A stretch of 18,188 bases of DNA, from the IMG/VR virus record IMGVR_UViG_2671181094_000006. One strand, written 5' to 3'. Source of the DNA: a virus (Duplodnaviria; Heunggongvirae; Uroviricota; Caudoviricetes). The notes under the pieces are model-generated. The model searched no databases. It saw only the letters and a program-made list of their open reading frames with translations, and was not told the origin of the DNA. This document shows, piece by piece, positions 1 through 18,188 of the stretch. Numbering within the stretch: the first letter of the stretch is position 1; each line of letters begins with the position of its first letter. The translations under genes and the position numbers were made by a program.

Positions 1-537
1 TTACTCGTCCAGCAGAATCACTTTGCCGATATACGGCAGATGACGGTAACGCTGTGCGTAATCAATGCCGTAACCCACCACAAACTCATCCGGGATCGAG
101 AAACCGATAAATTCTACCGGGACGTTCACTTCACGACGGGACGGTTTATCCAGCAGCGTACAAATCGCCAGCGACTTCGGTTCGCGCAGGCTTAAGATCT
201 CACGCACTTTCGACAGTGTATTCCCCGAGTCGATGATATCTTCAACAATCAGCACGTCCTTGCCACGGATATCTTCATCCAGATCTTTGAGGATTTTCAC
301 ATCACGGGTGGTGGACATGCCGCTACCGTAGCTGGAGGCGGTCATAAAGTCGACTTCATGAGATACCTGAACTTCACGGCACAGGTCCGCCATAAACATA
401 AATGAGCCACGCAGCAGACCAACCAGCACCATATCGCTGCCGCTGTCTTTGTAACGCTCAGTAATCTGACGACCCAGTTCGGCGATACGCGCTTTAATCT
501 CCGCTTCGGGGATCATTACTTCTACAATATGTTTCAT
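1..537 (-). CDS. hpt: hypoxanthine phosphoribosyltransferase
   Basis: 178-aa ORF with ATG at 537 and TAA at 3-1. The product ([24 protein letters not shown]...[14 protein letters not shown]...) carries the PRPP-binding motif of type I phosphoribosyltransferases and matches enterobacterial Hpt as I recall it. An in-frame GTG at about 552 could be an alternative start. Confidence 0.9.
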
Positions 538-1547: not shown

Positions 1548-1907
1548 ATGAGACTAACCAGCCGCAAAAAGACGATACTCAGCTACTTCGAACCGGATAA
1601 CCGCGACTGGGTGACGGGTGAGATCGGCGCACCTCCCCTTGATGTATCCGGCGTGGCGTACCTGCTGTATGGGACAGGCCTCGAAGACAACCGGCACTGG
1701 CTCGAATCCACCAGACGAACGCTGGAAGCAATGGTGAAAGATGGGTTGCTGGAGAGGTACCGGAGCAGGGAGGCGCGGAGTATCGTTATGGGCGGCGAGA
1801 CGACCGCTACCGTTGTCCGTTACGGCCTGCCGGGTACCGTTTCAGTGGTACGCGATACGGGAGGTGCAGACGGCACGATAGAAGGCGAATATGTGCGGGT
1901 CGTTTAA
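1548..1907 (+). CDS. conserved hypothetical protein, paralog A1 (119 aa), possible winged-helix-like regulator
   Basis: MRLTSRKKTILSYFEPDNRDWVTGEIGAPPLDVSGVAYLLYG... aligns along its whole length with the 5930-6289 product (MRMTSRKKEILSYFEPDNRDWVTGEIGAPPFDVSGVAYLLHG...). Start and upstream region are conserved between the two copies. Confidence 0.7.
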   Translation: MRLTSRKKTILSYFEPDNRDWVTGEIGAPPLDVSGVAYLLYGTGLEDNRHWLESTRRTLEAMVKDGLLERYRSREARSIVMGGETTATVVRYGLPGTVSVVRDTGGADGTIEGEYVRVV

Positions 1908-2095
1908 CGACGTGGATTATCTGGCCTCTTCCACTGGTAGGCTGGTGCCGTCATCCTCCGGCGGTGCCGTTCTTTAGCAGCGAGCGTTCCCGCAACCCTG
2001 CAACGTAACTCCAGCATATCGGTGGCATTCAGCTCATTCCCCTGCAGGCGGGCCAGCTCTTCAATTACCGCCTCGATTTTCTTCTGTTTTAACAC
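1904..2095 (-). CDS. small hypothetical protein A2 (63 aa, GTG start) with C-terminal APAYQWKRP...RR motif
   Basis: Convergent with A1, with the stops overlapping by 4 nt. The C-terminal motif is shared with the 6945-7130 product (RAPAYQWKKPAPRR). AGGAA lies 8 nt upstream of the GTG. Confidence 0.5.
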   Translation of the reverse strand: MLKQKKIEAVIEELARLQGNELNATDMLELRCRVAGTLAAKERHRRRMTAPAYQWKRPDNPRR

Positions 2096-2201
2096 GCTAT
2101 ATCTTCCTGCTCTATAGGCTCACCGGCTACGCCCTGAGCATCGTTATAAAAAGCCAGCCCCGGAGGGCTGGAATAACAGGAGCCCGCTGGCACACTTTGC
2201 T

Positions 2202-2789
2202 TTAATCGGTATCGTCGGCCAGGGCATACAGCAACGAAGGGATCACTCTCCGCATGGCTGTTTCTTCGGTTTCATCGCTCATGAGAGTCAGGGTGTAATC
2301 CCGGCACTCGTAAATCACATCATATGCAGACAGGCCGAACGCGCCGCCCGCAATGATCTGCCCAATTTCAACATCTGGCGTTTCAACAATCGACAGCCGG
2401 TAGCCGCCGAACGTCACAGGAGGGTTATAAGGCCCTTCGCTTACAAACAGCTCTACGGCCTTTGCAGCAACCTGGGCTCGTTCGTCCGGGTCCACCCCGG
2501 ACACCTTACCGGCACCTGACACCATGATGCGCTTAATCTCCGCAACACTCATTTCCACCAGCGTATACCCCTGCACCTCACCAGCTGGAGCAGGCTTGGT
2601 TTTACCCCTGGCATTCTTCGTACGCGGGTCACTGGCGCTGCGGTATCGTGCCAGATAAGTATCACAGGCCTCCTGGTCAATCTTCCCGTCAACCCGCGCC
2701 GGAAATCCTTCATGACTCTCCCAGTTATACAGTGCCTGCCGGCTCATTCCGGCATGTTTTGCGTACTGGCTGACGCTCATTAGTGACAT
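2202..2789 (-). CDS. HTH DNA-binding protein, phage Nu1-like (small-terminase-like N-terminus) / packaging-associated candidate
   Basis: N-terminus VSQYAKHAGMSRQALYNWESHEGFP resembles the lambda gpNu1 winged-HTH pattern (KKQLADIFGASIRTIQNWQEQGMP). AGGAG lies 7 nt upstream of ATG 2789. The gene sits beside a dense TGTCAA repeat array. Confidence 0.6.
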   Translation of the reverse strand: MSLMSVSQYAKHAGMSRQALYNWESHEGFPARVDGKIDQEACDTYLARYRSASDPRTKNARGKTKPAPAGEVQGYTLVEMSVAEIKRIMVSGAGKVSGVDPDERAQVAAKAVELFVSEGPYNPPVTFGGYRLSIVETPDVEIGQIIAGGAFGLSAYDVIYECRDYTLTLMSDETEETAMRRVIPSLLYALADDTD

Positions 2790-2825
2790 AATTTTTCTCC
2801 TGCCTCATTGTCACCGGCTGGCCAG

Positions 2826-3040
2826 TGTGTCAACCCGCCGGCGGGAAACTGTCAATCAAACGTCAAGGGATCAACCGCTTGACACTTTTTTCTGTCAACT
2901 TGACACTTTTCGGGCTGAAAGTGTCAATCAAACTGTCAATCAAAACTTTCACGAATTCCCCTGCATCACGCGCCGCCTCTGGACCTTAACAACCTGACAA
3001 CAAAAAAGTGTCAAGTGTAAAGTGTCAATCAAATTGAAAA
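2826..3040. repeat. array of TGTCAA / TTGACA motifs (four copies of TGTCAATCAAA, several GTGTCAA/TTGACAC, palindrome TGTCAAnTTGACA, 12-bp palindrome CCCGCCGGCGGG); candidate protein-binding (cosB-like or operator) region
   Basis: Read directly from the sequence in the 350-bp non-coding gap between the tfa stop (3138) and the Nu1-like gene start (2789). Confidence 0.6.
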
Positions 3041-3137
3041 CCTGCAGCTACAAAAACACTGCGGCGCGCAATGCCCGTGCCTTACAAAAGTCTCAGGAAG
3101 GACCCATTTTTTCTGAGGGCCATTCCATAGTTATCAC

Positions 3138-3563
3138 TTAATGAACTTCCGGCATCACAGGCCATTCAATATCTGGGGCATCATCAGGGTTAACACGACT
3201 GAGCAGAACGGAGTATTTTTCCCAGTGTTCCAGTCGCGTTTTTTCATCCAAGGTAGCCATTCCGTATTTCACAGCACGCGCTAAAGGGACGATAACGTCC
3301 TCAGCCTTTGTACGTTGCCGCTCTTTTTCAGCCCCAGCCAGCCTGGATAACTGTGCTTTGGTCTGTGGAGGTACATCGACCCACGAGGGCAAGCCATCAG
3401 CCCCTACCCCCCTTTGCTTACCTTCTGGTGGAACCCTGGTGAACTCGTGAAAAACGTTATCACTGACTGCTATAAGGTCCGCTGGTAGAGAATTGTTGTC
3501 CCGATAAGCTGGTAATAATTCATCAGGGTAAAAACACGCCGTTGACGCACTAAAATGATACAT
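3138..3563 (-). CDS. tail fibre assembly protein (Tfa-like chaperone)
   Basis: Start MYHFSASTACFYPDE and C-terminus HWEKYSVLLSRVNPDDAPDIEWPVMPEV match the conserved ends of phage Tfa chaperones (...W.KYR.LL.RVD...APDIEWP..P). Its ATG at 3563 follows the upstream TAG at 3566-3568 closely. Confidence 0.7.
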   Translation of the reverse strand: MYHFSASTACFYPDELLPAYRDNNSLPADLIAVSDNVFHEFTRVPPEGKQRGVGADGLPSWVDVPPQTKAQLSRLAGAEKERQRTKAEDVIVPLARAVKYGMATLDEKTRLEHWEKYSVLLSRVNPDDAPDIEWPVMPEVH

Positions 3564-3565
3564 GA

Positions 3566-4099
3566 CTATTCCCCTATAGCTAACCATCCAAAATTATCTG
3601 CATTACCCGAACTGCCGCTGATCCAGCCATATGCACGGAAACCGGAATTGGAATCATTGGTTACGGACACGTAACGATTTCCATCTGCGTACTTCGTAGC
3701 AACAATAGCAATAGCCCGCTTAGGAAAAGGTATCGGATACTGAACATTACCTGATGGTGAATTAATAGTGGCAGTTCCCATTTGAACAATAATATTTTTC
3801 TTTTCACCTGATGGTGTTCGGGTAGGAATAATACAGTAACCCTGTGAAGTAAGGGCACCTACGATGGGTTCAGATAGAAGGGCGGTGATCCTCAACTCAT
3901 CAATAACTTCGTTTAACTGACCATCATTTTCAGGCTCAAGCTGGCGGCCAGAACCCTCTACCACGCCCACCATCTCACGCTGCCAGGTATTAAAAATATC
4001 GGCAACAAGAATTGTTGGTGATACCCCATTAGCAACATTACCTTGTGTAAATTCCCCATTACTATCAGCAGTATCAGTGACTGAACTTATCTTACGCAT
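3566..4099 (-). CDS. tail-fibre-tip-like protein (177 aa), too short for a full fibre
   Basis: Directly upstream of and coupled to tfa, which is the usual fibre-chaperone arrangement. The C-terminal half is Gly/Ser/Asn-rich and looks beta-rich (...GWISGSSGNADNFGWLAIGE). The call is mainly positional. Confidence 0.45.
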   Translation of the reverse strand: MRKISSVTDTADSNGEFTQGNVANGVSPTILVADIFNTWQREMVGVVEGSGRQLEPENDGQLNEVIDELRITALLSEPIVGALTSQGYCIIPTRTPSGEKKNIIVQMGTATINSPSGNVQYPIPFPKRAIAIVATKYADGNRYVSVTNDSNSGFRAYGWISGSSGNADNFGWLAIGE

Positions 4100-4127
4100 T
4101 ATGCATATCCTTTAATTGATATCTTCG

Positions 4128-4586
4128 CTATATAGAAAGCGTATCTGCCATACTCACCGGCTCGATATACTTCTCAAGCGCTAACAGAGCGGCGTTAAAA
4201 CCAGCACGATAGCCGTTTGTGTCACCGTTAATCATGCTGTGTTGAAATGCCGCCATGTTCTGGTCTTCGGCATCAAGGAACTCCCAGCCAGGATAAACTT
4301 TCTCCATAGCCCGCCGGGTAAAACGACTGAGCTGGCGAGCGCTGCCTTTTAGTCTGGCAATAGCCTTCTGATGTGGGATCCCTTCCGCGATAAGATGAAA
4401 TGCCTGTATCGGATTTTGTTTTGCCGCTTTGCTCACCGCTATCAGATGCGCATCAGAATGGGGGCATTCAGGGAGTTCCTCTTCTTCAAGCGATTGCTGA
4501 AGCTGGTGCATACGCTGCATACGGCGCCCGGAAAAGCCATATGCATGCGCATCAGGTTGCTGCTTGTTGAGGTGCTGAAAGTTCAT
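4128..4586 (-). CDS. hypothetical protein, paralog of the 4607-5290 product (start taken at MNFQHLNK)
   Basis: Shares N-terminus (MxFxHL) and the central block WEF.D.E...NGY.A...AL.AL.K..EP with the upstream gene. GGAG lies about 9 nt upstream of ATG 4586. Confidence 0.6.
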   Translation of the reverse strand: MNFQHLNKQQPDAHAYGFSGRRMQRMHQLQQSLEEEELPECPHSDAHLIAVSKAAKQNPIQAFHLIAEGIPHQKAIARLKGSARQLSRFTRRAMEKVYPGWEFLDAEDQNMAAFQHSMINGDTNGYRAGFNAALLALEKYIEPVSMADTLSI

Positions 4587-4606
4587 AACGCTCATCTCCG
4601 CAGCTC

Positions 4607-5290
4607 TCAGAGAGGAACCTGCGATTTTAGGAGTTCGGCTTCTCGTGCCGGCCCTTCAATCTTGCCATTCACCCGACGGGTATCCCCCGGCAGGCTCACA
4701 CCAGATGCCCGGATACGATCGTTACGGCGTGCAGCAGCCTGCGCGACCTCTTCCCGGTACTCTTCGTCAGCCTTACGGCGAGCATTCACATTCTGAGGTG
4801 ACATAGGGTCATAGTCGTTTTGCATCTTAGATGCCTTGCTGGCTAATGCCTTAATCTCGTCTTCTGTCAGAGGCTCTTCCATCTTCTTCAGCGCCTTCAG
4901 AGCGCTACTCTGGGCAGCAGAGTAACCATTTGCATCACGGTTCTGCGTTGAAAACGTTAGCGCCGAGCGAGCTTTCTCTTCGTCATCCTGAAATTCCCAG
5001 GTCGGGTCATTCTCTTCCATAAACTTTTGGGTAAACACAGAAAGCGCCATCGGCGACGATGCCAGTTGCAGCTTTATTTTCTTCGAAGAAAGTTCCGTTT
5101 CCTTCAGCAAACGAACCGCCAGAACCGGGTTATTTTTTGCCTCCGGGGAAACCGCGACATTGTGGCCGCGACTGTGCTGCTTAGGTCTGGCGATCCGGGC
5201 GTCGTCACTGTCCAGTTTCAGTGGCACATTCCCGTTATCAGACTCGCCTTTCGTTTTGGTTTTGCCTGACAGATGCGAGAAATCAAACAT
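4607..5290 (-). CDS. hypothetical protein, longer paralog with Lys/Glu-rich C-terminal extension (start taken at MFDFSHLSGK; the ORF track extends to 5383)
   Basis: Paralogy with 4128-4586 supports the internal start at 5290 (GAGGAA upstream). The alternative start at 5383 also has a GAGGAAA RBS. Confidence 0.55.
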   Translation of the reverse strand: MFDFSHLSGKTKTKGESDNGNVPLKLDSDDARIARPKQHSRGHNVAVSPEAKNNPVLAVRLLKETELSSKKIKLQLASSPMALSVFTQKFMEENDPTWEFQDDEEKARSALTFSTQNRDANGYSAAQSSALKALKKMEEPLTEDEIKALASKASKMQNDYDPMSPQNVNARRKADEEYREEVAQAAARRNDRIRASGVSLPGDTRRVNGKIEGPAREAELLKSQVPL

Positions 5291-5327
5291 GGATGGGTTT
5301 TCCTCAGATAGTTGGGGCTGTTTTTTC

Positions 5328-5528
5328 TTATCTTTCGTACCGAACGCTCTTAGCGCCCATGCGGGTAACGTCATTAACGGCATGGCATGCTTTCCTCTGG
5401 TTGGCGATTATCCGGCGGAGCCACATGAGTTTTTTCTTCTGCTTTCTGAACAGGCGCTCTCTCTTCGCCGCGGCAAACCATTCCGGTAACACCCAGCTTG
5501 TTTTGCTCCTGCACTCCTGGCACGGCAT
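5328..5528 (-). CDS. small basic hypothetical protein (66 aa)
   Basis: Its ATG overlaps the stop of the upstream 58-aa gene as TAATG, suggesting translational coupling. No motif recognised. Confidence 0.35.
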   Translation of the reverse strand: MPCQECRSKTSWVLPEWFAAAKRERLFRKQKKKLMWLRRIIANQRKACHAVNDVTRMGAKSVRYER

Positions 5529-5704
5529 TACTTTTTATTTGTTTCATGTCTACTAATCCCCTGACGTAAAAGGTGACGCGCCAGCTCCTGAATACTCGGG
5601 GCTGCGCCTACGGTAGAACGTCGGCATTCATCCTCACGGAGGCGCTGTAAACCTTCGAGAATCGGCTGATCAACAAGAATCGGCTTTTTGTTAGTGACTG
5701 CCAT
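5528..5704 (-). CDS. small putative DNA-binding protein (58 aa, ribbon-helix-helix/Arc-like pattern); not in the ORF track because it is under 60 aa
   Basis: Translated by hand: MAVTNKKPILVDQPILEGLQRLREDECRRSTVGAAPSIQELARHLLRQGISRHETNKK. A strong AGGAGG RBS lies 7 nt upstream of ATG 5704. It is the first gene of the leftward operon, divergent from 5930-6289. Confidence 0.45.
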   Translation of the reverse strand: MAVTNKKPILVDQPILEGLQRLREDECRRSTVGAAPSIQELARHLLRQGISRHETNKK

Positions 5705-5929: not shown

Positions 5930-6289
5930 ATGAGAATGACCAGCCGCAAAAAAGAGATACTCAGCTACTTTGAACCGGATAACCGCGATTGGGTAACAGG
6001 TGAGATTGGTGCGCCGCCGTTCGATGTGTCGGGTGTGGCCTACCTGCTTCATGGCATGGGATCATTCGGTAAACGCCACCAGCTCGAATCAACCCGGCGT
6101 ACGCTCGAAAGCATGGTTGCCGGTGGACTGCTTGAGCGAATGACAGTGTATGAATCCCGTCAGGTACGGCGCGGCGGTGAAACCAGCGCAACAGTCGTGC
6201 GCTACGGTTTACCGGGACAGTGTGCCGTTGTGCGAGATAGTGGCGGCGCTGATAACGCAATACCAGGTGAATACATGCGGGTCAGTTAA
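5930..6289 (+). CDS. conserved hypothetical protein, paralog B1 (119 aa)
   Basis: Full-length similarity to the 1548-1907 product; about 80% nucleotide identity over the first 130 nt by eye. Confidence 0.7.
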   Translation: MRMTSRKKEILSYFEPDNRDWVTGEIGAPPFDVSGVAYLLHGMGSFGKRHQLESTRRTLESMVAGGLLERMTVYESRQVRRGGETSATVVRYGLPGQCAVVRDSGGADNAIPGEYMRVS

Positions 6290-6944: not shown

Positions 6945-7130
6945 CTACCTGCGCGGCGCTGGCTTCTTCCACTGGTAGGCAGGCGCTCGCATCATCTCCC
7001 CGAACCGTTTACGCCGGACTGTATCAGCTTCAATAATACGTTCCATCTCCCGAACCTCTACCGGGGTAAGCTGGTGGCCTTCATGCTCCATTTTGGCAGC
7101 GGTCAATAAAGCTATTTCGCGTGGTGTCAT
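6945..7130 (-). CDS. small hypothetical protein B2 (61 aa) with C-terminal RAPAYQWKKPAPRR motif
   Basis: Paralog of the 1904-2095 product by its C-terminal motif. ATG at 7130. Confidence 0.55.
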   Translation of the reverse strand: MTPREIALLTAAKMEHEGHQLTPVEVREMERIIEADTVRRKRFGEMMRAPAYQWKKPAPRR

Positions 7131-9567: not shown

Positions 9568-12345
9568 TTATTGCTCTGGCTGGCTTTCCTCCCCATCCGG
9601 CAGGAATTGCAAAACGTAAACGTTAATCTGCCTCCCCTGAATGCGCGGGCTTTTCCTCTGAAATTTTTTTCCGTCTGCCGAAGGGGTAAGCATCCCCGAT
9701 TCTTTCAGGACGCGGGCCACCTGCTGCCTGTTAAACCCCTTAGCAATATCCTTATCGAAAGTGTCGGGGAACGTGTAAAACGTTATCGGTGAATCGTCAT
9801 GATTTCCGCGCTGCCTGTATCCAGCCAGATTATGAATCGGCAGGCTGGCGGGGTCGTAAGGCAGCGGCGCGAATCGACTCAGGCCATAGGCATTTAAAAA
9901 TGCCTCCGCCTGCTCGATGATCTGCTGGTGCTCTTTGTTCCCCGTGCCGAACTCTTTTAGCCATGCGTTATAGGCGTGCTGTATCGCATCCCGGCACGTT
10001 TGAGCATCCCAGCCAGTAACCACGCCACCCATCAGTAAAGCGGCCTCCAGAATGGCAAATCTTGCCCCTACACGGTGAACCTGTTCCCCATAGTCGGCAG
10101 GAATTAGACTGCGCCAGCGGGCCTCACACTCACGAACGGCATCAATCGCCTGTTGCTGGTGGTCTGAAAGCCATCTGATCCACTCCCTCCCGGCAGCGCC
10201 ATGATGGTTCTGGTAAGCGTCTTTCAGCGCGTCGGCGTGGTCTCTCCCTGTCTGGTACTCATGAAAGCGCACCGCCTTACTCAGCGGGATATTCAGCAGT
10301 CGCACCAGTTGCCCCGCTTTTGTCTTGCGTCCTGCGGTGGAGATGAACGTTTCTAAATCCATTTCCCCGGTGCTGATTGCCACGGTGCGCCAGCGTTTCA
10401 GATCCCGGTTGCCTCCTTCCTTTGCTCCCTGCAATTTCCCCACGCCGTTAAACAGGGCATAGGCAGACTGAGCAACGCTTATCGGGTCTGCGCCCTGTCC
10501 GACTTCATCCAGTGGCATCAGCCCGTCATTGTGGGCGGCGGCCTCGTTTATCAGCCCCAGCGCCGTTCCGTACCACGTCAGGCGCAAGGCATCAGGGTTG
10601 CCATAAAGACTGCTCGCCACGTTCTGCGTGGTTGTTTTCCCGGCGCTCGATTGCTCGTAAAAATGAATCCCGAAGCCGTCACGCTCCGCCAGCCCGATTA
10701 ACGGTGCTGCAAGTGCGGCGGCAATGCCTGTCATCATCGCGTAGTTACCGTATGCCAGACGCGCAACACTCTTACGCCAGCTCTCTGAGGTTCCCGCCAC
10801 GGTGTACCCGGCAGCGGCAGAACTGCGGCCACTGAATAAAACGGGTTGTGCAGGTGCGCCGATAATCTCCCCGTCCGGCATGATGTATGCCCCGCACTGC
10901 CAGCCAGTAGCGTGAGCAACACGCCACAATTCACGTGAGCCGCTACGCTGTAACCAGTCAGCCAGAATCGCCCGCAAGCTGCTTTTGGTGGTGACGTTAA
11001 CCCCGCCCGCTTTCAGGGTGCGCCAGCCTTCGCGCTCCCCGATATCAGCCAGGGGGATAGCCGCTGTTGTCGGTATGCCTGCGCCAAAGGCCAGCCAGCG
11101 TAATATCAGATACTGATCCTTGTCGTCCCGCCCGGTGCCGATAACGTCCATCGGTGAGGCCAGCCAGCTTTCATTGTTGATAATCTCGCCGCTTTCCTTG
11201 TCCACTTTAGGCGTGATCCAGTAAACGCCATCTTTGCGGCTCTCAATGCGGGGTTTTAGCGGGTCTTTCTCTGGCTGGTCAGTTTTACCGCCCTCAATGG
11301 CCTGTAGTTGTGGTTTCACGCATTCCCCCTGCGGCTGGTACATCGAATCATTAAACGCAGCCGTAGCGACTTCCAGCCCGTGTTGCTGGTGGTAGTCGTT
11401 CCAGTCAGCTTTGCTGTCAGTCGGTGGCAGCGATACCCAGCCAGCCACGGATAAAGCCGCTTTCTCTGCGGCCTCCTTCCCGATGTTGGTGGCTCCGGTT
11501 TCGGAGGCTGCTGTAGGGTGGTCGTTATCTGCGGCGATAATAATTTGCGACTGCGGGTGTTTCCGGCGCATTACTCCGGCAACGTGGATCAGGTTCCCGG
11601 CGTCAATTGCCGCCACTGTGAGCGCGTCAGGCCGCATCTGGTGAACGGACAGGGCGGTAGCCAGCCCCTCGGCAATCACGACGCTTTGAGGCCGTTCCAG
11701 CGCGTTTACGGCGTAATATGCCCCGCGCTTTGCCGATCCCTTAATGAGTCGCTTTTCTCCCTGCGGGGTGATGGTCTGCGCGGCTGTGACTGCGCCGGAT
11801 TCATCCACCAGCTCCAGCAATAACGAACCATCGGGCATAAGCGGGTATTTAAACCCGGTCAGCCCTTTTGATTGCAGGTACTCAGATTCTCCCTGTATGG
11901 ATCTCAGGCGCATTCCGGTATACAGACGGGCAAACGTAGCCCTTCGCTGATCTGCGTCCTCTGCTGCCTGTTTCTGGCGCTCCTGCTCACGCTGCTGGCG
12001 GTCTGCGGCTAACTGCCTCTGTCTCTGGCTGGCAGCGTCTGGTGCTGATTCTGCGGCCCGGTAATCAATACCCAGCACATCAGCGGCAAGCTGTGCCGCC
12101 TCCGTGGTGTCGCAGTTGTTCACCTTCTTAATCAGGTCTAAGCCATCGCCCGCGCCGCACTGGTTGCAGATAAAGCTGCCGCGCCCGTTGTCGTCGAATC
12201 TGAAACGGTCTTTCCCACCACATGCAGGGCAGGGGGCATGGCGGCGCGATGAATCAGGAACGTCGATAGACAATCCGGCCAGCACATAAGGCCATCGCCC
12301 TGCTGCGGCGCTGGTCACTTCGCGGATAAGGTCGATATTACGCAT
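9568..12345 (-). CDS. primase-helicase (P4 alpha-like: N-terminal zinc ribbon, TOPRIM primase, C-terminal P-loop NTPase)
   Basis: 925 aa. Zinc ribbon CPACGGKDRFRF...CNQCG, TOPRIM acidic motifs (VVIAEGLATALS ... IIIAADND), Walker A-like SSAGKTT. GGGAGG RBS upstream of ATG 12345. Confidence 0.9.
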   Translation of the reverse strand: MRNIDLIREVTSAAAGRWPYVLAGLSIDVPDSSRRHAPCPACGGKDRFRFDDNGRGSFICNQCGAGDGLDLIKKVNNCDTTEAAQLAADVLGIDYRAAESAPDAASQRQRQLAADRQQREQERQKQAAEDADQRRATFARLYTGMRLRSIQGESEYLQSKGLTGFKYPLMPDGSLLLELVDESGAVTAAQTITPQGEKRLIKGSAKRGAYYAVNALERPQSVVIAEGLATALSVHQMRPDALTVAAIDAGNLIHVAGVMRRKHPQSQIIIAADNDHPTAASETGATNIGKEAAEKAALSVAGWVSLPPTDSKADWNDYHQQHGLEVATAAFNDSMYQPQGECVKPQLQAIEGGKTDQPEKDPLKPRIESRKDGVYWITPKVDKESGEIINNESWLASPMDVIGTGRDDKDQYLILRWLAFGAGIPTTAAIPLADIGEREGWRTLKAGGVNVTTKSSLRAILADWLQRSGSRELWRVAHATGWQCGAYIMPDGEIIGAPAQPVLFSGRSSAAAGYTVAGTSESWRKSVARLAYGNYAMMTGIAAALAAPLIGLAERDGFGIHFYEQSSAGKTTTQNVASSLYGNPDALRLTWYGTALGLINEAAAHNDGLMPLDEVGQGADPISVAQSAYALFNGVGKLQGAKEGGNRDLKRWRTVAISTGEMDLETFISTAGRKTKAGQLVRLLNIPLSKAVRFHEYQTGRDHADALKDAYQNHHGAAGREWIRWLSDHQQQAIDAVRECEARWRSLIPADYGEQVHRVGARFAILEAALLMGGVVTGWDAQTCRDAIQHAYNAWLKEFGTGNKEHQQIIEQAEAFLNAYGLSRFAPLPYDPASLPIHNLAGYRQRGNHDDSPITFYTFPDTFDKDIAKGFNRQQVARVLKESGMLTPSADGKKFQRKSPRIQGRQINVYVLQFLPDGEESQPEQ

Positions 12346-16961: not shown

Positions 16962-18188
16962 TTAATCTCTATTCGCTACAGGTAACAGAACCACATTTTT
17001 ATGATTACCCGCAAGAAGTTCTAAACGTTCATGCCATTTGTTCAGCGCATCCAGCTTCTCCGGCAAGTACAGGCTACGGTTATATATAGCCATGACGCCC
17101 GGTAGAGCATGACCCAGCAGCAACTCTACAATATGCGGTGCTATGCCCATATTGTTTAACCCCGTGGAGAACGTGCGCCGCAGATCGTGAAGTGTCCACG
17201 GCTCGTTATGATGGAAATCTTTAAAAAGCCGTCGCCCTTTCAAAGATACAGCTTGCCGGGTGCGCTCTTCTCCCAGCAGCAGGCCTGTTTTACCCGTCTC
17301 GCGTTTTAACTCTTCCAGCCACGGGCGTATAGCTTCAGGGATTGATCTCACGATTTTCTCGCGGGTTTTGCTGTGCTCTTTCGGGACTGTCCAAATCCAC
17401 GAGGTAAAATCCCACTCCGACCATCGAGAGAGGCGAACTTCCATCGTTCGAGCGCCAAACAGCACCAGCATTTTGAGAAGACGTGAATAATACGGCTGCT
17501 GATCATCGCTGTCTGTGCAGCGCCATACATCGGCCAGCTCGCTATCTGACAATACGCGGTCACGTTGACCGGATGGCTGGCCTACATCCTGAATGGTGAG
17601 AAAGGCTAGAGCATCACTGGCGGCATAGCGGCGAACCTTGCAGAAGCGTAACGCCTGTTTAGAAATCTGGAACATGCGGCCGGCGGTCATGGGTTTGGTC
17701 AGATTTATTTCATCAAAACAGGCCACCCAATGACGGGTTTCACATCTGGTGAGGGGATAACGACCAAGGCGCGGGTAAATATGCTTGCGTAGCTGTGCCC
17801 TTACCAGCTCCTCATCGCTGCGCTTTCTCCTGGCGTAGTTCACCAGCCAGTATTCGAGAGCATCCTGTACTGTCACAGGTTTAAGCGTTTCTTCGGTGCT
17901 CAGTTCAAGCTCTGTTTTTGGATCAAGACCACCAGCCAGCCACTGGCGACACTTTTCCCGCTTTTCTCTCGCCGCTTTTAGCGACAAATCCGGGTAACGG
18001 CCAAGCGTTAAACGTTCGAGTTTGCTACCCCTTCCGCCCAATCGGTAAGCGAACACCCAGCTAACGTTACCTTGCTTCGAAACCTTAATGCTCAGTCCTT
18101 CACCATCGGCAATCATGATCGGTGCTTCACGCTCAGAACCCTGCAGCGCTTTTAGCTTTTTGTCGCTCAGTTTGTTTGTACCAGCCAT
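16962..18188 (-). CDS. int: tyrosine recombinase, P4-type integrase (N-terminal arm-binding domain plus catalytic domain)
   Basis: 408 aa. N-terminal DGEGLSIKVSKQGNVSWVFAYR resembles the P4-family arm-binding motif. C-terminus has HDLRRTFST and LLGHA...AIYNRSLY (catalytic R, H-x-x-R, Y). The start codon sits exactly at the window edge, so the true N-terminus could lie beyond it. Confidence 0.9.
   Translation of the reverse strand: MAGTNKLSDKKLKALQGSEREAPIMIADGEGLSIKVSKQGNVSWVFAYRLGGRGSKLERLTLGRYPDLSLKAAREKREKCRQWLAGGLDPKTELELSTEETLKPVTVQDALEYWLVNYARRKRSDEELVRAQLRKHIYPRLGRYPLTRCETRHWVACFDEINLTKPMTAGRMFQISKQALRFCKVRRYAASDALAFLTIQDVGQPSGQRDRVLSDSELADVWRCTDSDDQQPYYSRLLKMLVLFGARTMEVRLSRWSEWDFTSWIWTVPKEHSKTREKIVRSIPEAIRPWLEELKRETGKTGLLLGEERTRQAVSLKGRRLFKDFHHNEPWTLHDLRRTFSTGLNNMGIAPHIVELLLGHALPGVMAIYNRSLYLPEKLDALNKWHERLELLAGNHKNVVLLPVANRD

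Follow-up and report, generated by a model that had tools for sequence, protein, structure and literature searches.

Satellites of tailed phages are assumed to have the same host range as the helper from which they take their tails. Among the few known exceptions, the phage-inducible chromosomal islands that form capsids (cf-PICIs) join capsids of their own to tails of different phages. PLE of Vibrio cholerae, a satellite of phage ICP1, encodes its own tape measure protein (TMP), tail assembly chaperone (TAC) and baseplate hub, which experiments have shown to enter transducing particles, leading to chimeric tails, and is described as the first satellite family known to build such tails; it hijacks the fibres of ICP1, and tmp genes have also been noted in some cf-PICIs (PMC12987554). 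The Streptomyces satellite MiniFlayer has its own capsid and fibres with which it attaches to the helper neck (PMC10690885). The present analysis concerns an 18,188-nucleotide stretch of DNA (IMG/VR record IMGVR_UViG_2671181094_000006, hereafter the window, always at its full length), which holds a phage-inducible chromosomal island (PICI) with a short tail fibre gene and a tail fibre assembly (Tfa) chaperone gene beside its cos site. The comparative evidence suggests, with a probability of roughly 55%, that these two genes form a working receptor-binding module of a short trimeric fibre and its chaperone, captured from the helper family, whose fibre would be incorporated in helper tails and present a satellite-specified tip.

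As in PLE, a satellite here encodes homologs of helper tail parts, and the TMP, TAC and gp44 hub found in sister PICIs of this island correspond to the PLE set. The present locus differs from PLE in that it carries a receptor-binding fibre with its chaperone, in an unrelated cos PICI of Enterobacterales, and in that incorporation into tails is predicted here. A satellite-encoded tail fibre is shared with MiniFlayer, which, in contrast, does not place a replacement fibre on a hijacked tail. In full-text literature searches, no publication was found that describes a tail fibre encoded by a PICI or by P4, MiniFlayer being the closest case, and a literature check gave no support for fibres in P4-like satellites. 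A classical PICI that would supply its own receptor-binding protein, in a lineage with TMP, TAC and hub genes, appears to be undescribed.

The module comprises the following features of the window:

3566-4099, minus strand: short tail fibre, 177 aa, supported by PF21882, tail-fibre PHROGs and a prophage ortholog

3890-4099, minus strand: fibre residues 1-70, N-terminal baseplate-anchor domain of a PICI-specific subtype

3569-3844, minus strand: fibre residues 86-177, predicted beta-sandwich receptor-binding tip

3138-3563, minus strand: Tfa, 141 aa, supported by PF02413 and phrog_188

An earlier note on this DNA, made from its letters, had considered 177 aa far too short for a complete fibre, which the comparison with phages contradicts. 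Directly after Mu_Gp48, a prophage of Serratia marcescens has the gene for a 177-aa ortholog (79% identity) and then that for a 140-aa Tfa (71%), and the cassette aligns with the Serratia prophage fibre locus at 73.8% DNA identity over a contiguous 910 bp across both genes. Lengths of 71 complete phage fibres of the family range from 76 to 394 aa with a median of 268, and 17 of the 71 have 180 aa or fewer. Because a same-length prophage ortholog and its Tfa make up the whole module after gp48, and because short fibres are normal in this group, the 177-aa protein is by comparison a complete short fibre and not a fragment.

Matches to tail-fibre PHROGs occur at both ends of the protein. Residues 1-70 match the N-termini of several of these profiles (E 1e-8 to 9e-11), and residues 103-176 match the Pfam domain Gp53-like_C (PF21882; E 1.7e-10). 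The anchor aligns with fibres of Serratia phage vB_SspM_BZS1 (BZS1), Citrobacter phage phiNP and prophages, the BZS1 homolog having 162 aa and 39% identity across its full length. In BZS1 and phiNP the fibre gene lies immediately 3' of a Mu gp48-like baseplate gene, and the anchor likewise opens a gene that follows a Mu gp48 homolog at a distance below 200 nt in 80/80 IMG/VR loci and in 5/5 loci of species-representative genomes (Raoultella, Serratia, Pantoea and Tatumella), a census that comprises only these five loci from a strict pattern scan. The same position after gp48 is seen in L013, L022-L024 and L027, loci found via homologous proteins; L013 is a Mu-tail prophage in which an anchor of this family is joined to a glycine-rich tip. 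The anchor motif, MxKxGxxTDTADxNGExTxGNVA...NTxQRE, has 23 invariant columns in 13 sequences, and the window anchor of about 70 aa is 57-74% identical to phage copies. The island therefore shares with the modules of the BZS1/phiNP type the same two-gene unit, a homologous anchor, a tip of up to 85% identity and a Tfa of 71%. It differs from them in position: the phage fibre follows gp48, whereas the window fibre has no gp48 upstream and the module lies between an orphan PICI core gene and cos.

AlphaFold2 modelled residues 86-177 as a beta-sandwich (pLDDT 77-91), whose top Foldseek matches in the PDB are the C-termini of R1 and R2 pyocin fibres (6cl5, 6cl6, 6ct8 and 6cxb) and AP22 gp53 (4mtm), with E-values of 5.5e-5 to 5.6e-4 at 14-20% sequence identity. 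On this model the tip is a predicted receptor-binding domain with a known fibre-tip fold. The R-type pyocin fibres (Prf15/PA0620) and AP22 gp53 are thus its best structural matches, and pyocin fibres likewise depend on a chaperone of the P2 G/Tfa type. The pyocin fibres differ from the window fibre in size (690-700 residues against 177) and in their anchors, in addition to the low identity of the tips. The relation to fibre structures on which the earlier note had made its reading depend holds for the 177-aa protein, and was not detected for the two paralogous genes upstream of it.

The identification of 3138-3563 as a phage Tfa chaperone, proposed before from its conserved ends (the product begins MYHFSASTACFYPDE and ends DAPDIEWPVMPEVH), is borne out by profile searches. 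The product matches Pfam Caudo_TAP (PF02413) with E 1.3e-30 and 106.7 bits (cutoff 22.1) at profile positions 4-131/131, and phrog_188 with E 3.7e-39. As the PF02413 match covers the whole profile, the gene is not the pseudogene fragment that the earlier note had allowed for. Its ATG at 3563 stands 2 nt past the fibre stop codon and has a Shine-Dalgarno-like sequence (GGGGAA); the fibre gene is preceded by AAGGA. A second possible ATG lies at 3587, and gene callers in other genomes also choose the 141-aa form. The Tfa gene directly follows the fibre gene in the 3' direction, as in the homologous prophage module, and with this spacing is predicted to be translationally coupled to it, in agreement with the coupling suggested before.

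By its architecture the island is a Gram-negative PICI adjoining hpt. The features on which this rests are:

1-537, minus strand: hpt, island flank

9568-12345: Zn-ribbon/Toprim/DUF927 primase, 925 aa

15649-15981: AlpA regulator

16962-18188: tyrosine integrase

Almost all island genes are on the minus strand. The island spans at least 17.6 kb from hpt to the window end, within the approximately 10-20 kb of PICIs, and has their gene order of integrase, AlpA-type regulator and primase/replicase; further genes encode a Bro-N protein, SSB, PerC and a PRiA4_ORF3 protein. Pfam and PHROG profile searches found no capsid, large-terminase or baseplate genes in the window, the fibre and Tfa being its only structural genes. 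The earlier picture of a real fibre and chaperone module inside a satellite is upheld. The hpt flank shares 98.5% identity with E. coli and about 86% with the corresponding flank of the other module carriers, which protein names place in Klebsiella and Raoultella; the host here is accordingly E. coli.

The module behaves as an insert in its PICI family, with limits set by comparison to a sister E. coli PICI:

3112-4155, minus strand: fibre and Tfa insert, 1,044 bp

In that sister PICI (L002, strain 2022CK-00450) the 1,044 bp are replaced by 198 bp with a 59-aa open reading frame (ORF), and window positions 1921-3111 and 4156-5383 align to it on either side, the flanks being 96% and 86.5% identical. 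The GC content is 0.436 in the fibre gene and 0.491 in the Tfa gene, compared with 0.52-0.56 in flanking genes. At the same hpt site, the PICI of E. coli VG1046-3E9 (L001, NZ_CP128594.1) has an intact 276-aa ORF in this slot (4623-5453), with a PICI-type anchor, a glycine-rich tip and no Tfa. PGAP/RefSeq calls only the C-terminal 615 bp of this ORF, as a pseudogene 'missing N-terminus'.

The cassette has spread through several enterobacterial genera. Database records list the exact 177-aa protein for 82 contigs, as 'MULTISPECIES [Enterobacteriaceae]', mostly Klebsiella and Raoultella, under the name 'gp53-like domain-containing protein', with Tfa named 'tail fiber assembly protein'. The search for the cassette elsewhere that the earlier note had proposed finds the gene order 58aa|57aa|258aa|152aa|fibre|Tfa|~195aa|~63aa in 18 Klebsiella-group PICI loci, with end genes occasionally absent or substituted; these loci vary in primase type, in defence cargo and between two attachment (att) sites. 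Two further PICI lineages have diverged fibre copies (84% and 74% identity) of identical length. One genome (GCA_019710705.1) contains two PICIs of the family at different att sites (L036 and L037), both with the cassette. In one Klebsiella-group PICI the fibre gene is split by IS66 (L030 6488-9523). At blastn sensitivity, the cassette has no DNA similarity to sequenced phages.

Maintenance of the cassette is indicated by its state in these lineages. In all three diverged PICI lineages both ORFs are still of full length and differ little or not at all in size, and dN/dS among PICI-borne copies is 0.05-0.06 for the fibre, 0.06 for fibre residues 71-177 and 0.12-0.15 for Tfa, values that are rough because dS is near saturation. 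Given the retained lengths and the low dN/dS across diverged lineages, the cassette is under purifying selection and is not a decaying remnant, contrary to the possibility of a prophage remnant raised before. Nor is it a copy of a neighbouring prophage fibre locus, the other case considered there, as the Serratia prophage locus is homologous at the DNA identity given above, belongs to another genus and is not a neighbour. Prophage homology of this kind explains the origin of the cassette without reducing the cassette to debris.

The fibre is a mosaic of an anchor peculiar to PICIs and tips shared with phages. In their first 42 aa, the fibres that PICIs carry in E. coli, Klebsiella, Serratia and metagenomes show 88-98% mutual identity irrespective of the tip, and the best of about 95 phage-borne anchors reach 74-81% identity to the PICI anchor over the same 42 aa. 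Residues 71-177 of the window fibre are 85% identical to Serratia prophage fibres, the anchors of which reach only 64%. PICI-borne fibres with the common anchor subtype carry either Gp53-like or glycine-rich tips. The reverse exchange is found in a Serratia liquefaciens PICI (L016 10001-10600), where a 199-aa fibre has the same tip (70%) on an unrelated anchor (MNKNEFLPFG...), of a type also present in temperate phage fibres of Providencia, Hafnia, Klebsiella and Burkholderia; this PICI has no paralog pair. In a Serratia fonticola PICI (L014 9150-9534 and 9708-9941), the first 31 codons of an older fibre gene and one half of a Tfa persist next to a newer 284-aa fibre; like fossils, these remnants record the replacement of a cassette. 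An ORF of 77 aa with a GpP_4th (baseplate hub) domain is found next to them.

Exchange of anchor and tip with apparent retention of function is the mode by which receptor-binding proteins evolve. An anchor that is shared among PICIs and distinct from those of phages implies long residence with repeated tip replacement, not a single recent accident. The satellite-specific anchor may match a helper outside the sampled phages or may be the product of selection for competition at the baseplate.

The cos site next to the module points to the helper family. The features downstream of Tfa are:

3041-3115, minus strand: island cos site, with the cosN cohesive-end sequence at 3074->3063

2846-3036: TTGACAC(TTT)/(AAA)GTGTCAA repeats, 7-8 copies in both orientations (families D1, D2, D4 and I1-I7)

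2202-2789, minus strand: TerS-like (small terminase subunit-like) protein, 195 aa, matching phrog_57 (E 7.9e-8) at residues 1-65

1904-2095, minus strand: 63-aa gene closing the conserved block, matching phrog_7271 (E 7e-25)

The island cos and the cos junction of BZS1 agree at 20/20 positions exactly and at about 44/46 over the block, and the annotated 12-nt cohesive end of BZS1, GCATTGCGCGCC, is present at window positions 3074-3063. In 34/34 PICI loci from this family the cos block is present, with the tail-gene slot on one side of it and the TerS-like gene on the other, and the 63-aa gene is kept after the TerS-like gene in nearly all related PICIs. The likeness ends on the cosB side, where BZS1 has GGTAACA repeats before TerS and the island has the TTGACAC/GTGTCAA cluster, which is probably a satellite-specific cosB-like array. 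A lambda-type cosN was also considered and gave only a chance-level 11/12 match inside the primase gene.

In residues 1-93 the 195-aa protein shares 34% identity with TerS from the contig of a Mu-tail phage (E 1e-12), and over 47 aa it shares 32% with BZS1 TerS; this N-terminal match to phage TerS proteins appears in pairwise comparison only. The cos match and the TerS-like N-terminus independently indicate phages of the BZS1 type, and temperate cos myoviruses of this type, with lambda-like heads and Mu-like tails, are the likely helpers. BZS1 itself is a cos phage with a Nu1/A-type terminase, lambda-like portal, protease, decoration and capsid proteins and a Mu-like contractile tail. The helpers so inferred are the same phages whose baseplates carry fibres with the window-type anchor. 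In one sister locus (L128 7459-7992), a full-length TerS homolog, 43% identical to that of BZS1, replaces the 195-aa protein.

This arrangement recalls the PICIs with Rpp ('redirecting phage packaging') proteins, in which we know of no described tail genes. Rpp-type PICIs such as EcCICFT073 share cosN and cosQ with their helper and differ from it in cosB (PMC6739421). The present island resembles them in its integrase/AlpA/primase layout, in the same cosN/cosQ with another cosB, and in a mimic of the TerS DNA-binding domain beside cos, and its 195-aa protein is a candidate Rpp analogue. It differs from Rpp in size, with 195 aa compared with 144-153 aa (PMC6739421), and in having no detectable similarity to RppC; the likely helpers also differ, being Mu-tailed myoviruses here and lambda or phi80 there. 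A bona fide Rpp assignment was not supported, as the 195-aa protein matched no PDB chain including RppC (E<=0.01) and no phage by tblastn.

The module could act as follows. On induction, the late block would be transcribed as a unit in the order 58aa-57aa-paralog2-paralog1-fibre-Tfa-cos-TerS-like. The layout is that of an operon, with gaps of 2 nt and 28 nt and Shine-Dalgarno sequences, and no terminator-like site was found on the coding strand from 5045 to 2171. Tfa would fold the C-terminal lectin-like fibre tip, and the anchor of about 70 residues would dock on the Mu gp48-like baseplate protein of the helper, either replacing the helper fibre or standing beside it. Tails from a PICI-bearing cell would then carry the satellite-specified receptor-binding domain and would join capsids filled via the island cos, so that the satellite and not the helper would set the targets of adsorption; as a side effect, correctly fibred helper virions would be reduced. 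We infer co-transcription, incorporation into tails and the effect on host range from gene content and comparison.

Of the readings considered, such retargeting of helper-derived particles agrees best with the comparative evidence, and several results weigh against it. No PICI-type anchor subtype occurs among the sampled phages, so docking on a given helper is an assumption, and the anchor monomer model is weak, with pLDDT below 50 at residues 1-50. The coding strand yielded no sigma-70-like promoter. A search of 5,426 complete E. coli genomes did not find the cassette, and many sister PICIs have no fibre (L002 and L121-L126), so the fibre is not essential for transfer. Decay also occurs occasionally, as in the IS66-disrupted copy and in truncated forms, and the selection estimates carry the roughness noted above. 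Finally, because tails assemble independently of heads, the satellite is unable to reserve its fibre for its own capsids.

This last point bears on an unlikely rival in which the fibre is a decoy that fills baseplate sites of the helper, leaving helper virions to adsorb poorly, and in which the main gain is reduced spread of the helper. With a common tail pool, helper particles would be affected too, and because of this pool retargeting and interference are inseparable by sequence and not firmly rankable. PICIs routinely interfere with helpers, as when Rpp blocks phage packaging (PMC6739421), blockers of tail assembly are known from PICIs and PLE in Tai (PMC11364771) and Rta (PMC12987554), and the PICI-specific anchor subtype could reflect selection to out-compete the helper fibre. 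A decoy would need the anchor alone, however, yet the tip and Tfa are both under strong purifying selection at the dN/dS values given above (0.06 and 0.12-0.15), and tips have been swapped between classes as in true receptor-binding proteins. A fibre that did nothing but poison would also harm the satellite itself, whose particles use these same tails.

It is more improbable still that the cassette is passenger DNA without a role, brought in by recombination with a helper at the cos-proximal end and not yet decayed. Its place immediately beside cos, where recombination between PICI and helper is plausible, its GC content below that of neighbouring genes, the sister PICIs that do without it, and the interrupted, truncated and remnant copies would agree with such an origin. 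Against it stand the three lineages in which both ORFs are intact despite saturated synonymous divergence and have dN/dS of 0.05-0.15, and the anchor subtype common to PICI fibres of E. coli, Klebsiella, Serratia and metagenomes and distinct from that of sampled phages. A role in defence of the host population, with fibre or Tfa causing mis-assembly or titration of baseplate or fibre parts of superinfecting Mu-tailed phages, is judged equally doubtful. Defence cargo does occur at several hotspots of PICIs, and tail assembly is what Tai acts on (PMC11364771); the lone chaperone genes of L121-L126, which have no fibre, show that the chaperone may have a role of its own. Neither the fibre nor Tfa has a PADLOC match, though, and both genes lie inside the late morphogenesis and packaging block by cos and not in the variable defence regions after the primase. 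That the fibre occurs together with its cognate Tfa, at 79% and 71% identity to the pair that a phage itself uses, argues for normal fibre assembly.

Other tail genes occur in sister PICIs, which were found in IMG/VR with paralog 2 as anchor. Their coordinates, in each locus, are:

L120 7251-9104: TMP homolog with SLT domain, in the slot between paralog 1 and cos

L122 1334-2497 and 7205-9007: tail genes of this locus, which has a TMP homolog with SLT domain in the same slot and a baseplate hub outside it

L127 7207-9420 and 9430-10080: tail genes of this locus

L121 5597-5941: lone 122-aa Caudo_TAP gene

The slot of L127 holds a TAC gene, a full-length TMP gene (53% identity to the BZS1 TMP) and a homolog of BZS1 p72, the gene of which lies near the right end of the BZS1 genome. 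In L122, a full-length Mu gpP/gp44 baseplate hub gene stands immediately after the primase gene, outside the slot. In L121-L126 a single 122-aa Caudo_TAP gene stands upstream of paralog 2 and there is no fibre gene; a chaperone that a satellite carries without a fibre of its own may act on fibres of the helper. Such a lone Caudo_TAP gene is also present in L014 (7380-7748).

Taken with the fibre module, these genes allow the tentative proposal, which we hold at somewhat less than even odds, that this cos-PICI lineage keeps a dedicated cos-side slot for helper tail parts (fibre with Tfa, alternative fibres, TMP and TAC), with the hub elsewhere in one member. The slot of the present island would hold a fibre with a satellite-specific anchor and phage-exchanged tips, and the resulting chimeric tails would set their own recipient range.

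The genes upstream of the fibre are conserved with and without it:

4128-4595, minus strand: paralog 1, PICI core gene, 152-155 aa

4607-5383, minus strand: paralog 2, PICI core gene, 258 aa, predicted all-alpha

5374-5704, minus strand: two small genes heading the conserved block, 57 aa and 58 aa

That the two larger genes are paralogs with common motifs, as proposed before, is confirmed by 41% identity over 104 aa (E 4e-21), and across 25 family members there is no or almost no variation in the F-x-H-L motif and the WEF...NGY...AL block. The location and minus strand given for the four genes were correct. The start of paralog 2 was placed at 5290 and is more probably at 5383, since other genera conserve the added N-terminal extension at the protein level and gene callers give 258 aa; for paralog 1 they give 152 aa with a start at 4586. 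The earlier inclusion of the paralogs in the fibre module is not supported, as both are core genes of the PICI family across Enterobacterales, present in fibre-less PICIs too, and have no fibre-linked match. Neither has a match in Pfam, PHROG or PADLOC, nor in 50,697 phage records (searched for paralog 2 by tblastn, E<=1), and the family has just 43 representative clusters among 1.84 billion proteins. The structure model of paralog 2 is confidently all-alpha and has no significant fold match in PDB or BFVD. As a guess of low confidence, prompted solely by the late-block position and a scaffold-like helical nature, the paralogs may have a morphogenetic or helper-interference role.

Tai proteins were considered for the paralogs since Pectobacterium PICIs hold both Tai and paralog homologs. 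The targets of Tai proteins are the central fibre J or the tail needle, and tailless particles result; most of these proteins are found in phages such as phi80, and they also occur in PICIs, P4-like satellites and prophages, and are not described as fibre homologs (PMC11364771). The likeness to the present island lies in a PICI-borne function aimed at tails of helpers or competitors. TaiPectA and TaiPectB, in contrast, have 189 and 212 aa and lie 'after pri', and judged by the published descriptions neither the fibre nor the paralogs could be linked to them. For the paralogs the identity is unsupported on the same descriptions, as size and position differ and paralog 2 has no match in phage records, the place where most Tai homologs should be found. 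One genome has three copies of the paralog pair (L129-L131) beside fragments of phage capsid and tail genes, which are possibly PICI-phage chimeras.

Elsewhere in the window there are two more paralog pairs, both of which vary in position among sister PICIs. The plus-strand pair (1512-1907 and 5930-6289) encodes 131- and 119-aa proteins that start MR(L/M)TSRKK.ILSYFEPDNRDWVTGEIGAPP, and the minus-strand pair (1904-2095 and 6945-7130) encodes 63- and 61-aa proteins that end APAYQWK(R/K)P. A variable cargo hotspot lies between the primase and the 58-aa gene in L005-L012 and L028-L037. Its contents in otherwise similar PICIs include SEFIR/TIR, PP2C with a protein kinase, AAA_15/AAA_21, HATPase_c_3, an M78 peptidase/HTH and GAPS4-like genes.

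The cos match gives these PICIs a concrete helper family, and the slot reading, if true, could explain the identical fibre protein in PICIs of E. coli, Klebsiella and Raoultella. If the module works as proposed, this would be the first satellite shown to equip a hijacked tail with a receptor-binding protein of its own, and the module would offer a natural compact unit (177 aa with 141 aa) with an exchangeable tip for the engineering of transducing particles. Satellites could then directly programme whom they infect, which bears on how resistance, virulence and defence cargo crosses species and genus lines in Klebsiella, E. coli and Serratia.

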